This document shows, piece by piece, positions 37,937 to 45,967 of a stretch of 64,000 nt of DNA. Every line of letters starts with the position of its first letter. Within the stretch, counting starts at the first letter, position 1. The DNA lies in contig CAVPJU010000006.1 in NCBI GenBank assembly GCA_963705505.1, forward strand, positions 672,001 through 736,000, read 5' to 3'. This stretch comes from an uncultured bacterium. GTDB lineage: Bacteria; Desulfobacterota_D; UBA1144; Nemesobacterales; UBA2774. A program made the position numbers and the translations under genes. Under the pieces are notes generated by a model. It worked only from the letters and a program-made list of their open reading frames with translations, did no database searches and was not told the DNA's origin.

Positions 37937-38561
37937 ATGGAACCGAATACCGAGGAGAGCAGGCAGGCATTCATACTGAATTTCTGGTTCGGCGATCTTA
38001 AGGAGGGAGATGTCCCTCCCGAAGAATTGAGCCGGATGTGGTGGGCAAAGGACGAAAAGACGGACGAATATATCAGGACTAATTTCGAATCCGACATTGC
38101 GGATGCAAAAGAAGGCAGGCTCCACGAATGGGAAAAGACTCCGCGCGGCACGCTCGCTCTCATAGTACTGCTCGACCAGTTCTCGAGGAATGTGTACAGG
38201 GACACGCCAGGGGCTTTTTCGCAGGATCGGCCAGGCATTGGAAATAGCCGTAAGCGGGATCGAAAAGGGGTTTGACAAGGAGCTCCATCCCATTGAAAGG
38301 GTGTTCTTCTATATGCCCTTCATGCACCGTGAGGATATCGATATGCAGAAGAGGTCGATAGCCCTGTTTGCGGCTTTAGAGAGGGGTTTCACTTCCCCTG
38401 CTGAACTTGCGGAAATGCTTTCTACCAACAGTGAATACGCCCGAAGGCACTATGCGATTATAGAGAGGTTCGGAAGGTACCCGCATAGGAATAAGATACT
38501 GGGTAGGGAATCGACGCCTGAGGAGGTCGAATTCTTGAAACAGCCGGGGTCATCTTTTTGA
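37937..38561 (+). CDS. DUF924 family protein, +1 frameshift near 38228-38231
   Basis: ILNFWFG...LALIVLLDQFSRNVYR in the first frame; FFYMPFMHRE...IIERFGRYPHRNKILGRESTPEE in the second. Confidence 0.85.
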
Positions 38562-38970: not shown

Positions 38971-39058
38971 TCTGGAGTCTCTTTTTAAAGCTTATTTGCC
39001 GAAACGCTCCGCGATATACTCCGGTTTGATATTAATTCTCACTCTGGCAGCGGTTGAG

Positions 39059-39466
39059 TTACTTTCCCTTGAGCTTAGCCTCAATCTTGCTGAGTACATA
39101 GCGCGACAGGCTCTCATCGCCGAATGTACCCACCCTTATCGATATGTCGGTCAGGTTATCTGTGACTCTTTTAAGCTGTATCTTTACGGTTTTATTGTCG
39201 GCTGTTTTCGATTCGAGCTCGGCCGAGACGTCGTCTTTTATCTTATTGACTACGAGGAACTGCAGATCATCGATTGCGGCGACAGTAGCCCCCCACGTTT
39301 TGTTAAGAGATGCTTCTTCAGTGGCTTTTAATTCGCCTTTTATATATGCTACCGTACCGGCTCCTGCTGCTGCCGCCCCGCCCACCGCTGCCGCCGCCAG
39401 GCACCCGGTCAATATGAACGGACATGCTGCCAGTAATAGTAAAATCAAGAGTTTCTGCTTTTTCAT
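39059..39466 (-). CDS. DUF3568-like lipoprotein
   Basis: Lipobox LTGC, GAGTVAYIKGEL, IRVGTFGDE. Confidence 0.8.
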   Translation of the reverse strand: MKKQKLLILLLLAACPFILTGCLAAAAVGGAAAAGAGTVAYIKGELKATEEASLNKTWGATVAAIDDLQFLVVNKIKDDVSAELESKTADNKTVKIQLKRVTDNLTDISIRVGTFGDESLSRYVLSKIEAKLKGK

Positions 39467-39778
39467 AACGTGCTTCCTCCGGTCTTCATGGTCTTAATAG
39501 ATTTGATTACGCGTAAGTCAATCAATTATATCCGGTGATAGTTGATTTTCGCAACTGGAATGTTCATTTGGCAAATATAACGCCGGCGGGCGTCGATCTT
39601 AATTATTACTGCGCCTCGGACAGGCGCATATACAAAGGGTCGAGCGGAGTCGGTCTCGGGAAAAAGAGCGTTTCCGAACAAAACCAGTCATATGACTGTC
39701 GTTATCGAGTTGTTGAATTATTACTCCCGCATTATTAGAATTGTAATATCACGGGGTAACAGCGGGGATTAAATTCGG

Positions 39779-40009
39779 ATGGGAAATAATAAAGCAATGG
39801 TCTATTCAGGGGAACTGAGACATTCTGAAACTTTTTATGGGCATAATCGTATTTTTATAAAGAGGGACGGCATCGTTATCAGGGCGGATGACGGGGAGTG
39901 CATCGCTGCCCCGGTGGAAGGAATAATGAAGAATCCAAGGTCAAAATTGCGAAGCGCGCGAGAGCGGTCGGAAGGATGTTTCCGGACAGTGACTGTATAT
40001 CCGTTTTAA
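39779..40009 (+). CDS. Possible small hypothetical protein
   Basis: 76-aa ORF ending 28 bp before 40038; weak RBS, no motif. Confidence 0.25.
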   Translation: MGNNKAMVYSGELRHSETFYGHNRIFIKRDGIVIRADDGECIAAPVEGIMKNPRSKLRSARERSEGCFRTVTVYPF

Positions 40010-40037
40010 AAACTATGAATACACCTGACCTTCGAGC

Positions 40038-41891
40038 ATGGCATCGATAAACGAAGACTATCTAATACCGCTCGTTATAGGGGTGACCAGCCGGAAGGGT
40101 ACCGTTGCGGATGAAGAACGTCTGTCCGGACTCATAAGCGGAGAGATGGTCAGGCTCAGGAATACGTTTCCGAATTCTCCGTTCATTGTCATTTCTTCTC
40201 TTGCGGAGCGGGAGGAACGCCTCACCGCCAGGCTTGCGATCGAGCACCTGCGGGCGAGGCTCATAGCAATACTTCCGCAACCGCCCGAGCAATGTGTAAA
40301 TACGCTTCAGAACGATATTAACAGGGAGGACTTTTCACGAATTCTCGACCTGGCGGAGTCCTCACTCGATATCTCATCGCTGATGCAACTGAGGCTCGGT
40401 GTGAAAAGATACGATTTATTGGAAGACAGCGCGTTGAGGGAGAGCTTTACTGCCGCCTTTATTGCCGAGCATAGCGAGATTCTGTTCGCGATTTGTGCGG
40501 ATGAAACTGAGGGAGAGACAGACACGACCGCTCAGATTATTAACTGGATAAGGGAAGGCAGCATCACACGCGAATTCTCTTTGAGGGAGAGCAAAACAGG
40601 CCTGGATAATTTGGACAAAAGCATGATAATCTCAATAAATCCCATAACCTGCCTGACAGCGACTGAATCCGCCCCGCCCGAGGAAAATACAGAAGCGGCA
40701 AATGATGAATCCGGGGATCAAACGGGATTTATGCGTTCTATTCTCAGCAAGTTCTCCGGGAGTATCTTCGGGTTCGTCGAGAACGTGAGTGATTCTCTCG
40801 ATAACCTATATGATTATTATTTCAAGCATACGGCAGCCCAGGCGACGGATAAATATGAAAAATCGCCCTTCATAAATATAATAGAGAGGATCGACGGATT
40901 TAACCTCGATATCAGGAATTATTATGAGGGTCACGGTGAGCAAGAGCTCAATCAATCTAAAAAGTATTTACTCCAGAGTGAATCAGATAACGAGCTCATT
41001 TCGGATAATCCGACACTCCAAAGAATTATATCCCTTTACTCGGGCGCGGATGTTTTATCCCAGTACTATCAGAAAAAAACCTCGGGCCTCATAAACTGGA
41101 TCTACGCCCTCTTTTTAGTTGCCGTCTTGCTCTATGGACTGATCAATATGAGTTCTTATCTGGTCCTTTTCTACATAGGTTTAATACCCGCCATTGCCCT
41201 TCTGGTTAAAAAGAGTCTGAAAGACAGGGTGGAGGATCGGTTTCTCGACTACAGGGCCCTCGCGGAGGGGCTGCGCGTACAGGTCTTCTGGACGCTGTGC
41301 GGGATAAATGAGAACGTTTCATCCCACTACCTGAGCAAGTATGAGGGATTGCTGACCTGGATCAGGAAAGCGGTGAGGAGCATCGAGATTATGACGTTAA
41401 GAACGGACAGCGGAGATGGGCGGCGGGATAAATCCGCGCTGGTGGATATTACAAAAAGATTATGGATAGACTCGCAGCTCGATTATTTCAGGTCGAAGAG
41501 GAGACCGATTTTCATGAGGTCACGGCAGTTCGGGAATGTTGTATTTTTATCTTTTGTATTTACTCTTCTGACGGACGTCGTGTACGGCGCATACGTTCTG
41601 ATAGCCGGAGTCGACAACGGCAAAGCGATAAATGATTTTCAGATTCTCCTGGGCGTGATTGCCGCTGTCGGAGTTGCCGCCCAGGCATATAAAAATAAGA
41701 AGGCCTACGACGAGCTCGAGAGGAGGTACAGCCTGGCCCAGCAAATTTACGCCGCCGCGAAGAGGGAGCTCGAAATCGGCAAAGTGCCCGCGGAGAAGAT
41801 TCTCGTCGCGGTCGGCAGGGAAGCTTTGCTTGAGAACAGTGACTGGCTCTGGACTCACAGGAATGTTCCGATAGAGCTGCCCAAAGGATAG
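40038..41891 (+). CDS. Degenerate SLOG-like domain fused to tandem SLATT-like 4-TM region
   Basis: LVIGVTSRK, ISSLAEREE, ILPQP, SEILFAICAD parallel the neighbour's motifs; YSGADVLS..YQ, 2 TM, RFLDYRALAEGLRVQ, WIDSQLDYF, 2 TM, EALLENSDW. Confidence 0.75.
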   Translation: MASINEDYLIPLVIGVTSRKGTVADEERLSGLISGEMVRLRNTFPNSPFIVISSLAEREERLTARLAIEHLRARLIAILPQPPEQCVNTLQNDINREDFSRILDLAESSLDISSLMQLRLGVKRYDLLEDSALRESFTAAFIAEHSEILFAICADETEGETDTTAQIINWIREGSITREFSLRESKTGLDNLDKSMIISINPITCLTATESAPPEENTEAANDESGDQTGFMRSILSKFSGSIFGFVENVSDSLDNLYDYYFKHTAAQATDKYEKSPFINIIERIDGFNLDIRNYYEGHGEQELNQSKKYLLQSESDNELISDNPTLQRIISLYSGADVLSQYYQKKTSGLINWIYALFLVAVLLYGLINMSSYLVLFYIGLIPAIALLVKKSLKDRVEDRFLDYRALAEGLRVQVFWTLCGINENVSSHYLSKYEGLLTWIRKAVRSIEIMTLRTDSGDGRRDKSALVDITKRLWIDSQLDYFRSKRRPIFMRSRQFGNVVFLSFVFTLLTDVVYGAYVLIAGVDNGKAINDFQILLGVIAAVGVAAQAYKNKKAYDELERRYSLAQQIYAAAKRELEIGKVPAEKILVAVGREALLENSDWLWTHRNVPIELPKG

Positions 41892-41897
41892 AGTCTC

Positions 41898-43676
41898 ATG
41901 ACAAGCACAAATGAAATGAAATCCCCTCCTAAAGCCCGCCTCGCGGTCAGGGTCGGCGTTACGGGACACCGTCCCTCGGGACTTGATAAGGCCGATATGA
42001 AGGTACTCAGGACGCAGGCAGCGGAAGTTCTTAAACATATCAAGAGTGTTGCTAACGCAGTGAAGTTTTCCTTGTATTCCGACGGAGCGCCGCCTGTGCT
42101 GAGGATAGTGTCGCCACTTGCGGAGGGCGCCGATACGCTTGTTGCGGAAGAGGCCTTGAAAGAAGGGTATGAGCTCCAGTGCGCGCTCCCCTTCGACCGA
42201 TACGAGTATGAAAAGGATTTTTGGGACAGTGATTCCGTCAGAAGGTACCGGACTATGCTGGGGGAAGCTACCTCCATACTCGAGCTCGACGGTTCACGGG
42301 CGACTGAGGACCTCGAGAAGGAATCATATCAAACGGTCGGCCGGATGGTGCTCATGCAGAGCGACGTTCTTATTGCGATATGGGACGGCGAGGACGCAAA
42401 AGGGAAGGGGGGGACCGGGCAGATCGTGAATGAGTCGCACATACACGAAATCCCCGTCGTCTGGATAAATTCTAATGCCCCGCACGAGGTCAAGGTGCTG
42501 ATGGGGGAGGAATACGGGAGGCAAATTGAAGTGCGCCTCCCGGACCTCGAGATCCGCTTGAAGAGGGTCCTTCAGCCTCCCGCCGCGAAAAAGCCCGACC
42601 TCAGCAGGACCTACTTTTCCGAAAGGCAGCCATCGTGGACGTGGGGATTTATATTCGAGACATTCTGCGATATTTTCTCGGGCGAAAGGATAGAGACCAG
42701 AGGCGTCAAGGTCAGGAATTTCGTGGAAGAAACCGAAGAAGAATGGCGGAGAGTCTGGGATTCATGCCCGGATTTTCCGCAATCGGTCAAGGACCAGATC
42801 AACGATAAATTCCTCGGGCATTACAGCTGGGCGGACAAGCTCGCCAATTATTATTCAAACATTTACAGGAGCTCATTCGTGGCTAATTACCTGATGGCCG
42901 GTCTGGCGGTATTCTTCGCCCTCCTCACTCCGACCGTACGGAGTCTGGAGACACTCTGGATAATCTGCGAGCTCGCTCTGATCATACTCATAATACTGAT
43001 AACAGGCATCGGCAACCTGAAGCGCTGGCACGAGAGGTGGATAGACTACAGGCTCCTCTCGGAGCAGCTCAGGCAGCTCAGGTTTCTTACACCGCTCGGC
43101 CTCACGACGCCGGCATTCAGGGTGCCTGCCCACGATACTTACGGCGATCCCAGGAGCACGTGGGTGAACTGGCATTTCCGGGCGATTGTCCGGGAAGCGG
43201 GCATGGTCGGAGCGAAGATCGACGGGGAGTACCTGAAATCCTACAGGGATTTCTTATCGCAGCAGGAGATTACTGCGCAGATTAAATACCATGAATACAA
43301 CGCCCCCCGCTTTCATACGATCCATAACGTACTGCATATAATAGGCACCGGTCTATTCGTACTTACGCTCATTGCGAGTTTGGCTCATTTATATGTGCAC
43401 AACGACTGGCTGACTCTCTTTACGGCTGTCTTCCCCGCATTGGGCGCAGCGTTTTACGGTATCCGGACACAGGGGGAATTCGAGCAGATAGCAAAGAAAT
43501 CCGAAGCGATGGGCGCTCAGCTGGACAATCTCAGGGACGAGCTGCTTAAAACGGATTTCGTCCCGTCATACGGCGTGCTGGGCAACATTGCGGAAAGTAC
43601 CGCGGAGATCATGTCGTCGGAGACTCTCGACTGGAGAATAGTATTTCAATCCAAGCGGTTAGTGTTGCCTGGGTAG
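41898..43676 (+). CDS. SLOG (SMF/DprA-LOG superfamily) domain fused to tandem SLATT/DUF4231-like 4-TM region
   Basis: VGVTGHRP, VSPLAEGADTLVA, CALPF, SDVLIAIWDG, GGTGQIV; YSWADKLA..Y, 2 TM, RWIDYRLLSEQLR, QIKYH, 2 TM, ETLDWR. Confidence 0.8.
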   Translation: MTSTNEMKSPPKARLAVRVGVTGHRPSGLDKADMKVLRTQAAEVLKHIKSVANAVKFSLYSDGAPPVLRIVSPLAEGADTLVAEEALKEGYELQCALPFDRYEYEKDFWDSDSVRRYRTMLGEATSILELDGSRATEDLEKESYQTVGRMVLMQSDVLIAIWDGEDAKGKGGTGQIVNESHIHEIPVVWINSNAPHEVKVLMGEEYGRQIEVRLPDLEIRLKRVLQPPAAKKPDLSRTYFSERQPSWTWGFIFETFCDIFSGERIETRGVKVRNFVEETEEEWRRVWDSCPDFPQSVKDQINDKFLGHYSWADKLANYYSNIYRSSFVANYLMAGLAVFFALLTPTVRSLETLWIICELALIILIILITGIGNLKRWHERWIDYRLLSEQLRQLRFLTPLGLTTPAFRVPAHDTYGDPRSTWVNWHFRAIVREAGMVGAKIDGEYLKSYRDFLSQQEITAQIKYHEYNAPRFHTIHNVLHIIGTGLFVLTLIASLAHLYVHNDWLTLFTAVFPALGAAFYGIRTQGEFEQIAKKSEAMGAQLDNLRDELLKTDFVPSYGVLGNIAESTAEIMSSETLDWRIVFQSKRLVLPG

Positions 43677-43730
43677 TCAATCACAGCTATAATCCTTCAG
43701 TATTTCCTCGGGAGGAGAGGGGGAAAACGC

Positions 43731-45074
43731 ATGGCTCACGATGTTTTTATCAGTCACTCTGCGAAAGATAAACCGATAGCCGACGCCGTATGCGCTACTC
43801 TTGAAAAAGGAGGCGTCAGATGCTGGATCGCCCCGAGGGATATCGTTCCCGGTACCCAGTGGGGGGAGGCGATCATTGATGCGATCAGCTCGTGCCGGGT
43901 TATGGTGCTCGTGTTTTCAGCCAACGCCAATGAATCCCAGCAAATTATACGGGAAGTCGAGCGCGCGGTCAGTAAGGGGGTACCGGTTATCCCTTTCAGG
44001 GTGGAGGACGTCGACCCCAATAAGTCCCTCGAATATTTTATAAGCGCTCCTCACTGGTTAGACGCTCTGACACCGCCTCTCGAGAAACACCTGGAACAGC
44101 TACTATCTACTATAAAGCTTCTGCTGACGAGAAAAGGAGCGCGCGCCGAGCCGACGCCCGATAAGGATACCCCCGGGTTAGAGACAATAAGGCCGCTCGA
44201 TACAAAGGGATATGTGCCGAAAAAGTCCTTTCTGGATAGTCTGGATGCAAAGAAAGTCGGGGGCGGCATAGTCGCTCTAATTATCATAGTCGCAGCCGTG
44301 TATTTCCTTTCCGGGGGCGGCAAGGATAATAATACAAATAACGATTCAAATAAGAATTCAAATAATAATAGCTCTCAAAATGTAGTACCGCCTGCACCTA
44401 CCAACTATAATCCTCCCGTTTATAAGACGTCTCCTCCGGGACCCCACGACAACGAGGGGACATGGGGAGCGATCTCCATCGCCCCTAGCGGCGGATGGGG
44501 TTTTTCTACTAATATGACCTCGAAACAGGCGGCCGAGCAGGACGCTATCGAAAGATGCAGTCAGTTCAACACGGGTTGCGAGGTGAGGGTCGCATTCAAC
44601 TCCTGCGCTGTCTATGCAACAGCGCCAGACGGGTCATACGGCTGGGCAACCAATACGACCGTTGACCTGGCGAGGAATAACGCGGTCACTGAATGTCATA
44701 AATACACGAGTGAAACATGCAGCTCGTTCATTGAGTTATGCTCGGACGGAAGCGTGAAGACAGTGAACGTATGGGCGGCCATAGCCACAGCCGATAACGG
44801 GCAATACGGAGTTTCATGGAACTATCCTACGCGTAGTCAGGCGGAGAAAGCGTCTATTGATGAGTGCACAAAATACGGGCCCAACTGTCAGATGAGGATT
44901 TCCTTCACCGACTGCGGCGCGGTAGCGCGGAGTGAGGACGGTGCTCTCGGTTGGGGGTACTATTCCGATATGAATGAAGCGGTAAAGGCGGCAATTGAGG
45001 AGTGTGACGGCCGAAGTGAGAAAAAATGCAGCATCCTTACTCAGCTGTGCGCCGACGGAAGCCAGAAGAAATAA
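43731..45074 (+). CDS. TIR domain - single TM - two DUF4189-like Cys-rich repeats
   Basis: DVFISHS.KD, CWIAPRDIVPG, IREVERA (E75); TM aa 176-194; N/P-rich linker; repeats start WGAIS (aa 245) and WAAIA (aa 348), 6 Cys each. Confidence 0.85.
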   Translation: MAHDVFISHSAKDKPIADAVCATLEKGGVRCWIAPRDIVPGTQWGEAIIDAISSCRVMVLVFSANANESQQIIREVERAVSKGVPVIPFRVEDVDPNKSLEYFISAPHWLDALTPPLEKHLEQLLSTIKLLLTRKGARAEPTPDKDTPGLETIRPLDTKGYVPKKSFLDSLDAKKVGGGIVALIIIVAAVYFLSGGGKDNNTNNDSNKNSNNNSSQNVVPPAPTNYNPPVYKTSPPGPHDNEGTWGAISIAPSGGWGFSTNMTSKQAAEQDAIERCSQFNTGCEVRVAFNSCAVYATAPDGSYGWATNTTVDLARNNAVTECHKYTSETCSSFIELCSDGSVKTVNVWAAIATADNGQYGVSWNYPTRSQAEKASIDECTKYGPNCQMRISFTDCGAVARSEDGALGWGYYSDMNEAVKAAIEECDGRSEKKCSILTQLCADGSQKK

Positions 45075-45094
45075 CACCCAGCCGGGAAAACTTC

Positions 45095-45967
45095 TCAATT
45101 GCCCGATTCTTTAAAGGACTCTTCTTCCATGACGACTTCGGGTGAGCTGCGGCCGTTCTCAAACCCCTCGTACCTGACCCATCTGTGCGGGGGCGCAACT
45201 CTAAACCAGAAATATGTCTTCGGAAAAAAGACTTTAAATATATTGAGCACGCCTAATTTGGGCACGAGCTCAACTTTGTAGCACTCTATTTCGCCGTCAG
45301 GCGTATTGATTTTCTCGATTCCCCTCTGTTTGAGCTCGATATTGTAAAGATCGGGCTCGTTTGTAAGGAATTGAGCTTTGACAGTATCATCCGTACCGAA
45401 CGGGAGCGAGCGGAGGGCCAGAACGATCCCCTCAACGAACAAAACGTTCCGGTCTGTCTCGTATGTCTTGTTCGCCGACCTGCCGCTTTCAAAATCCTGT
45501 CTTACGAATGACACTGTTCCGGTAGAGTCATCTACGGTTTTCCTTTCCGTCATAACTACTTTGCCCCGCATATCTTTAACCTCGGTTGAGGATTCAACTG
45601 GTGTGAATGCGGATCCGGCCTTCCACACCGATACGGTCTCCCATCTCATATCCCTCGTAAATGGGTTAGTAATTCCCTGCCCTTTCAGTGTGAGTCTTAC
45701 CGTGGTTTCTCCGTTGTCTGTGAATTTTTCGGTCGTCCAGTCCGCTTTCCATCTGGTCCCGCCCCCCTTGTAAGTGGTGACCATGGAGCCTTCCTCTCTT
45801 TTGCCAATAGGAGGTGTGCTAATCGGGTGTGCCGGCAGCGGGGTTACCAGGACTGTTAAAAGAAAGAAGGGAAATAATAGAAATGCATTTTTATGGGATA
45901 TACCGTAATTAGTCCTGCACCAGCTTCCGGCAAGTGAAGCTATTCTCCAAAATGTTTGCTTATACAT
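45095..45967 (-). CDS. Exported protein, DUF3108-like (start uncertain)
   Basis: Hydrophobic signal; LRSLPF, EKINTPDGEIECYKVEL, YFWF. Confidence 0.65.
   Translation of the reverse strand: MYKQTFWRIASLAGSWCRTNYGISHKNAFLLFPFFLLTVLVTPLPAHPISTPPIGKREEGSMVTTYKGGGTRWKADWTTEKFTDNGETTVRLTLKGQGITNPFTRDMRWETVSVWKAGSAFTPVESSTEVKDMRGKVVMTERKTVDDSTGTVSFVRQDFESGRSANKTYETDRNVLFVEGIVLALRSLPFGTDDTVKAQFLTNEPDLYNIELKQRGIEKINTPDGEIECYKVELVPKLGVLNIFKVFFPKTYFWFRVAPPHRWVRYEGFENGRSSPEVVMEEESFKESGN

Follow-up and report, generated by a model that had tools for sequence, protein, structure and literature searches.

Three consecutive genes on the + strand of the window, the whole 64,000-nt stretch of uncultured bacterial DNA analysed here, encode two SLOG-SLATT membrane proteins (gene 1, 40038–41891; gene 2, 41898–43676) and a membrane-anchored TIR protein (gene 3, 43731–45074). 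We interpret the three genes, with moderate confidence, as a TIR-based nucleotide-signalling module of the Thoeris kind, in which the gene 1 protein is a non-sensing partner of the receptor-effector encoded by gene 2. The four Gly-rich pocket motifs of the SLOG head are intact in gene 2 and altered in gene 1, yet gene 1 is maintained by purifying selection. Genes 1 and 2 are found in the same genomes, and the three genes have been lost together as a unit in one congener. The conserved pocket-dead partner and the receptor-like membrane TIR are the unusual features of the locus; the combination of TIR with SLOG/SLATT is itself a known type of module. TIR-made nucleotide signals and SLOG/SLATT effectors are central to research on bacterial immunity and to its links with plant and animal immunity, and a pocket-less yet selected partner would be a natural pseudo-receptor subunit, offering a handle on how SLATT modules are gated or restrained.

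Pocket loss and purifying selection in gene 1

The 617-residue gene 1 protein consists of a SLOG-like head (aa 1–215; 40038–40682) and a membrane half with two SLATT-like hairpins (aa 326–617; 41013–41888). The 592-residue gene 2 protein, whose database entry starts at Met7 and contains 586 residues, has a SLOG head (aa 1–225; 41898–42572) and a membrane half with two SLATT modules (aa 301–592; 42798–43673). AlphaFold2 predicted the two structures with predicted local distance difference test values of 89.4 for gene 2 and 69.7 for gene 1, the gene 1 head lying mostly at 74–93. Both models matched YpsA (2nx2) in Foldseek searches (probability 1.00; TM-score on the target of 0.64 for gene 2 and 0.62 for gene 1), and further matches, likewise from the SLOG superfamily, were DprA, the Moco carrier protein and LOG. 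These comparisons support a predicted YpsA-like SLOG-type Rossmannoid fold for both heads. Pfam models, those of the SLOG families included, gave zero matches to either head, and searching solved structures by sequence with the gene 2 profile yielded nothing meaningful; for the gene 2 head, the ESM Atlas gave no more than a lead to the YpsA family (score 0.84). TRPM channels also join an N-terminal SLOG-like domain to a transmembrane (TM) channel, and TRPM2 is gated by ADP-ribose. TRPM4 and TRPM8 chains occur among the whole-model Foldseek matches (probability 0.6–0.75), but their TM-scores do not reach 0.2 and the architectures of the membrane domains are unrelated, so that the likeness is an analogy only.

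In the membrane half, gene 2 matches NCBIfam SLATT_1 in two stretches (60.3 bits; cut-off 41) and Pfam DUF4231 (27.7 bits; cut-off 24.7). The SLATT score of gene 1 is below threshold (17.2 bits), and its membrane half is homologous along the full length to that of the gene 2 family and to subfamily B, the group of SLOG-SLATT proteins to which gene 1 belongs. Two helical hairpins are present in each AlphaFold2 model. Both proteins are assigned an architecture of one SLOG domain and two SLATT modules of two TM helices each, because of the SLOG folds, the SLATT_1 and DUF4231 matches and the two hairpins per model. The initial annotation, made from the DNA letters, had given each protein a SLOG head and four TM helices; the fold, the modules and the hairpins agree with this layout, and a crude hydropathy scan departs from it with three segments per protein above its threshold.

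The relationship between the two proteins is distant. BLASTP aligned only the first membrane module (25% identity over 170 aa, E 1e-4), whereas hhalign aligned the two families end to end over 538 columns (probability 98.9%, E 1.8e-17), with 26 of the 39 close gene 1 relatives (fragments and near-duplicates omitted) on one side and 40 of the 120 listed gene 2 relatives on the other. In this alignment, GVTSRK of gene 1 (aa 15–20; 40080–40097) is paired with GVTGHR of gene 2 (aa 20–25; 41955–41972), SSLAEREE (aa 53–60; 40194–40217) with SPLAEGAD (aa 72–79; 42111–42134), AICADE (aa 151–156; 40488–40505) with AIWDGE (aa 160–165; 42375–42392) and DTTAQII (aa 162–168; 40521–40541) with GGTGQIV (aa 171–177; 42408–42428). 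The membrane motifs AD.L..YY, DYR.L.E.LR, Q..Y and E..DW are paired as well. The profile alignment thus recovers the same altered pocket motifs and the same shared membrane motifs that the initial annotation had picked out by eye.

The gene 2 family keeps its pocket almost unchanged. Residues G20, G23, H24, R25, S72, A75, G77, D79, W162, D163, G164, G171, G172 and T173 of the head are invariant or nearly so. Passages on the YpsA clade describe its GxD/E motif as the predicted substrate-binding site (PMC6459960). Gene 2 carries this feature, with G77-A-D79, GVTGHR, WDG and GGTG invariant across the family, whereas gene 1 has R58-E-E60 in place of GxD/E and GVTSRK, AICADE and DTTAQ in place of the Gly-rich loops.

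Orthologues of gene 1 were found in assemblies of Dadabacteria and Thermodesulfobacteriota, and the full-length open reading frames (ORFs) in two genera diverge to 43% identity. The claim of a pocket-less gene 1 would have been weakened by intact motifs in close orthologues, and among 26 orthologues none keeps the His of GHR, WDG, GGT or the whole motif set. Mean pairwise identities were compared between the 26 sequences of the gene 1 clade and 14 gene 2 sequences of the same clade. At motifs 1, 2, 3 and 4 they are 0.51, 0.44, 0.29 and 0.31 in gene 1 and 0.96, 0.97, 0.79 and 0.96 in gene 2, respectively. Over the whole head they are 0.45 and 0.62, and over the membrane half 0.70 in both. Across the deep split of the two genera, the gene 1 heads share 31–35% identity and the gene 2 heads 55–57%. 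The membrane half is the most conserved part of gene 1 and contains the invariant stretches DYRALAEGLRV and ENSDWLWTHR..P.E.PKG.

The ratio of nonsynonymous to synonymous substitution rates (dN/dS) was calculated by the Nei-Gojobori method on matched genome pairs whose dS is under 1.5. For gene 1 it amounts to 0.25 in the head (9 pairs) and 0.09 in the membrane half (7 pairs); the corresponding parts of gene 2 give 0.19 and 0.11 (10 pairs each). Both halves of gene 1 are therefore under purifying selection, the N-terminal domain included, in agreement with the initial view that this uninterrupted 617-codon ORF is not a decaying copy. The opposite view, that gene 1 is a pseudogene on its way out, has in its favour the loss of all pocket motifs and one frameshifted orthologue, but it is contradicted by dN/dS values of 0.09–0.25, by full-length ORFs in two genera down to 43% identity and by a membrane half as well conserved as that of gene 2; together with the SLOG fold still predicted for the head, these data make a pseudogene very improbable. 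The frameshifted orthologue (L005:7215-7218, genome G076) contains an extra G, CGGCGCC in place of CGCGCC of the related locus L002, and its frame shifts near codon 72. This 1-nt insertion may be an assembly error, or it may be an early sign of a pseudogene and of dispensability, which would count against a required role for gene 1.

The head of gene 1 appears to be constrained as a folded domain in which the former ligand-contacting loops drift. The initial annotation had left two options for it, ligand-blind or specific for a different ligand. The drift of all four pocket motifs inside the gene 1 clade favours a ligand-blind head over a newly specialised pocket. A gene 1 that still senses, with a remodelled acidic head that binds another nucleotide, a cation or a protein such as the TIR in a two-input system, would account for the selection on the head and its retained fold, for conserved non-pocket stretches (NTFPNSPF, AAAFIAEHSEILFA and REGSITRE) and for a G-x-D/E at motif 2 in 4 of the 26 orthologues. 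A specialised pocket should show conservation, however, and few parts of the head vary as much as the pocket motifs (identity 0.29–0.51 against the head mean of 0.45); motif 4 differs wholly between the genera (DTTAQII versus SEVERAL/GEVKKAL). We therefore consider a second sensor quite improbable. The four orthologues with G-x-D/E, and the GxxGRK that closer orthologues retain at motif 1, still speak against a uniformly blind gene 1, and some species may have residual ligand binding.

The initial annotation had treated genes 1 and 2 as a paralog pair, one intact and one degenerate. This description did not survive the wider comparison, in which gene 1 falls in a different subfamily whose members otherwise have intact motifs. 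Relatives more distant than the orthologues are at most about 30% identical to gene 1; they have the same membrane motifs, DYRALAEGLRVQ.FW and EN.DW...HR..P.E.P, together with intact GVTGHR, LAEGAD, WDG and GGT. On hidden Markov models (HMMs) of the two subfamilies, gene 1-type ORFs score 269–362 bits for B and 39–65 bits for A, and gene 2-type ORFs score ∼900 bits for A and ∼175 bits for B. In a maximum-likelihood tree of 66 proteins (quick search; supports from the Shimodaira–Hasegawa-like approximate likelihood ratio test, SH-aLRT, no bootstraps), subfamily A (23 rows) is separated from subfamily B with the gene 1 clade (43 rows) at a support of 100. The sister group of the 9-row gene 1 clade (support 100; long stem of 1.05) consists of B proteins with intact motifs (P0040-43, support 98). 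A recent tandem duplication giving genes 1 and 2 was rejected on the basis of these relatives, HMM scores and the tree, in which gene 1 is nested in the normally intact subfamily B.

An exhaustive search of 1.8 billion representatives found closer gene 1 relatives, at 33–39% identity. Where the sequence is present, the motifs are retained in 17 of 19 aligned relatives outside the clade. Two proteins among the closest of those relatives depart from the intact set: P0361 (39% identity to gene 1) has only the His of GHR changed to Cys, and P0363 (33% identity) has lost motifs 1, 2 and 4 and kept WDG. They are possibly intermediates or independent cases of pocket loss. Because these changes lie outside the clade, pocket loss may have begun before the Dadabacteria clade or occurred more than once.

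Co-occurrence, inheritance and joint loss

Genes 1 and 2 are adjacent in all nine related loci, and gene 3 follows in all eight that reach past gene 2. The flanks are constant, with genes for ribonucleotide reductase, DUF924, SnoaL and DUF3568 on one side of the trio and a DUF3108 gene on the other. Among 120 genomes of the class, orthologues of genes 1 and 2 are found in the same 12, and none has one of the two alone; these comprise nine of the ten genomes in the window's genus (its own genome counted) and all three in a second genus. Gene 1 ends with TAG at 41889–41891 and gene 2 starts with ATG at 41898, leaving a gap of 6 nt, and a Shine-Dalgarno-like AAAGGA for gene 2 (41883–41888, +) is located within the final codons of gene 1. 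This placement and the short gap suggest that gene 2 is coupled to gene 1.

In the congener G074, the trio is gone, and between the DUF3568 and DUF3108 genes only the final ∼64 codons of gene 3 are left, as a broken remnant (L131:1724-1916); the three genes were lost together as a unit. At the level of the family, the trio is patchy and occurs in two of seven genera. Its site is empty in three other genera, with DUF3568 directly beside DUF3108, and is occupied in a fourth genus by unrelated transport and peptidase genes (SDF symporter/Zn-peptidase); P450/DUF5995 genes were also seen there in other genera. The empty sites and the deletion in the congener led us to reject the idea of a core housekeeping locus. 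Trio-less genera have DUF3568 proteins 88% and 77–80% identical to that of the window, as against 68–70% in the trio-bearing second genus. Because the trio-less genera are the closer ones by this measure, the simplest reading is that the trio was inherited vertically from long ago and that the unit was repeatedly lost as a whole. Three further genomes, from a sister family, matched the gene 1 profile more weakly. Two of them have a single subfamily B gene, in one case directly after a TIR-TPR gene, and in the third (G013) the B-like ORF is broken by a TGA.

The distribution also bears on whether genes 1 and 2 act together at all. They might work independently, gene 1 as a homo-oligomer that is ligand-free or answers another input, with the operon merely in common. 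Subfamilies A and B normally occur singly, and two different effectors are described as rarely sharing one Thoeris operon (10.64898/2025.12.03.692087), both of which would suit such independence. It sits poorly with the strict co-occurrence in 12 of 12 genomes, the joint loss in G074 and the tight spacing, and a SLATT pore without a gate would probably be harmful. We regard independent action as unlikely.

A membrane-anchored TIR and the proposed pathway

The third gene of the operon, which the initial annotation had overlooked, encodes a TIR protein of 447 residues that is the likely source of the ligand. Pfam matches TIR_2 (7.7e-23, aa 5–124) and DUF4189 (3.1e-40). The protein contains the TIR domain (aa 1–130), a single hydrophobic helix (aa 176–194), a low-complexity linker and two DUF4189 domains (aa ∼246–440) with 12 Cys residues. 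Because a signal peptide is absent ahead of the TIR, the TIR is predicted to face the inside and DUF4189 the outside. DUF4189 is described as a periplasmic or secreted fold with three disulfides, one member of which, XAC2611, binds the pilus-tip protein VirB5 of the type IV secretion system in the periplasm (10.64898/2026.05.09.723464), and another member, Rv1813c, is described as secreted (10.1101/2021.01.31.428746). No other TIR_2 domain occurs in the window's genome.

The gene 3 TIR evolves very slowly, with a mean pairwise identity of 96% among eight orthologues and a dN/dS of 0.016. Its family comprises 4889 proteins at E<=1e-5 among 8000 candidates scored, with identities to the gene 3 TIR of mostly 45–77% in records from several phyla (P0264-P0360), a degree of conservation not usually seen in defence-system TIRs. 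Among 119 other proteins listed, 117 have a full TIR match, and the TIR is N-terminal in 116 of them. The C-terminal domains vary and are often of extracytoplasmic type (FGE-sulfatase, DUF1080, TPR, WD40, DUF4189 and others). Family signatures in the TIR (43731–44120 in the window) are RCWIAPRD, S.Q..RE.ERAV and HWLDA..PP.E.H. Glu75 is present in all 106 aligned family members and is the putative catalytic residue. A search of solved structures with the gene 3 TIR gave only weak TIR matches, which end before this Glu. PADLOC found gene 3 weakly ThsB-like (17.2 bits) and gave gene 2 a weak match to a 2TM effector.

Beyond the domain assignments, we infer a pathway in which engagement of the periplasmic, disulfide-rich DUF4189 part would activate the cytoplasmic TIR of gene 3. 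The TIR would then produce a signal derived from nicotinamide adenine dinucleotide (NAD), of the ADP-ribose (ADPR) type, which the intact SLOG head of the candidate receptor-effector, gene 2, would bind. The SLATT modules of gene 2 would change membrane permeability, presumably by forming a pore. Gene 1 would contribute through its membrane half as a non-sensing subunit or modulator, either a co-assembling scaffold or a brake on the pore. The periplasmic domain attached to this membrane TIR points to a trigger perceived outside the cytoplasm, in contrast to the Thoeris sensors of the available descriptions. The pathway could be of Toll-like-receptor style, in which the product of a DUF4189 sensor–TM–TIR protein gates a SLOG-SLATT channel that is a heteromer of one sensing and one pseudo-receptor subunit. 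We put this fuller version forward as possible but rather doubtful. If it were true, gene 1 as a pseudo-subunit would set the threshold or the stoichiometry, as pseudoenzyme partners do elsewhere, and the large N-terminal TIR family with its varied outward-facing domains would be a general, uncharacterised outside-in signalling system.

The general Thoeris arrangement, a TIR generator beside a ligand-sensing effector, is present in the trio, in which the SLOG-SLATT genes lie directly upstream of the TIR_2 gene; a location among defence genes or mobile elements is not. Type VII Thoeris is described as combining the TIR protein ThsB with the SLATT effector ThsH and using canonical cyclic ADPR (cADPR) as the signal (10.64898/2025.12.03.692087). 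The trio shares with it a TIR gene beside a SLATT effector, which is thought to oligomerise on a TIR-made ADPR derivative. It differs in that the effector combines two SLATT modules with a SLOG head of its own and is present in two versions, one of them pocket-dead. The TIR is membrane-anchored and linked to periplasmic DUF4189, no defence island is visible, and the trio is known from its genes alone. In type I Thoeris, the SLOG domain of ThsA is described as binding 3'cADPR (10.64898/2025.12.03.692087). In types I (ThsA, SIR2-SLOG) and III (several TIRs and a SLOG effector), SLOG serves as receptor for a cyclic ADPR isomer produced by a TIR, as proposed for the trio, and type I differs in its output, which is SIR2 rather than a SLATT membrane module. 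Fusions of a YpsA-like SLOG to SLATT are likewise known; a conserved dead-pocket partner is not mentioned in the literature passages on SLOG and SLATT domains (PMC6459960, PMC9503650, PMC7159879).

Several points weigh against a Thoeris-like module with gene 1 as the non-sensing partner, in addition to the residual motifs and the frameshifted orthologue described above. The TIR is membrane-anchored, unlike the ThsB proteins in the available Thoeris descriptions, and its catalytic Glu75 is a candidate deduced from position. The trio is flanked by ordinary metabolic genes, with no defence-island or mobile-element setting at any locus. Because a defence island is absent and the TIR is anchored in the membrane, several biological roles are possible, either phage defence or the sensing of the envelope or of contact. 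The domain content and the patchy distribution point to a conflict system, and a stable cellular role is suggested by the fixed site among ordinary genes and by the very slow evolution of the TIR. The heteromeric channel proposed in the initial annotation, and any contact between the gene 1 and gene 2 proteins, has indirect evidence only, in the form of co-occurrence, joint loss and gene spacing. A complex prediction for the membrane halves (gene 1 residues 270–617 and gene 2 residues 265–592, alignments supplied) gave a score of 0.05 and a mark of 0.32, values that speak neither for nor against binding. Since genes 1 and 2 do not stem from a recent duplication and the subfamilies are normally single, a heteromer may not be assumed from near-identity of the two proteins.

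Related loci and features around the trio

The neighbourhoods of related SLOG-SLATT genes were scanned with 93 of the 110 immediate neighbour ORFs from 80 subfamily A metagenome loci and two from genomes G001 and G015; the 17 ORFs left out are short (90–161 aa), and 13 of them lie on the opposite strand. Among the 80 loci, a gene 1-type partner was found only in the three Dadabacteria-type loci with the upstream side present. Single SLOG-SLATT genes of both subfamilies have TIR neighbours outside the trio's locus: a TIR_2 protein adjoins the gene in 10 of the 80 loci and also in L026. Three of the ten TIR_2 neighbours are TIR-DUF4189 proteins, and the others are SIR2_2-TIR, kinase-iSTAND-TIR, DUF4062-TIR, TIR-TPR or proteins with TIR_2 alone in Pfam (268 and 817 aa). 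Locus L057 contains the only other SLOG-SLATT neighbour in the set with a TIR of the gene 3 subfamily (55% identity). In the passages on these domains, SLATT is predicted to be a permeability effector regulated by ADPR derivatives and the YpsA-clade SLOG to be a sensor of cADPR variants (PMC9503650, PMC7159879). The neighbour pattern fits these predictions as well as type VII and type I Thoeris.

Other partners also occur. A TrkA_N protein stands beside the subfamily A gene, in a pairing without TIR, in 13 of the 80 loci (L039, L041-L044, L046, L047, L061, L067, L070, L072, L075 and L097), five of them with a RyR domain. RyR-domain proteins without TrkA_N were found in four loci and STAND/WD40/TPR proteins in several. 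At L078:3310-7097, two subfamily A SLOG-SLATT genes are arranged tail to tail in convergent orientation (A-model scores of 526 and 268 bits), a different form of doubling from that of genes 1 and 2.

Gene 3 has its own GGAGG, and the 54-bp gap upstream of it contains a promoter-like TTGCCT-17-TATAAT element. A scan for promoters and terminators gave 10 and 7 sites, respectively, against 5.5 expected for each, and is uninformative apart from this element just 5' of gene 3. An Rfam search of 39000–45500 returned zero matches, and no RNA data are listed among the 20 public runs that contain part of the window. Upstream of gene 1, a divergent intergenic region of 540 bp separates the trio from the DUF3568 lipoprotein gene, and the DUF3108 gene is convergent at the 3' side of gene 3. 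The DUF924 gene of the window (37937–38561) is frameshifted just after ...GAFSQD into two overlapping ORFs (37937–38275 and 38190–38561); its orthologue in L002 is a single intact ORF of 207 aa.

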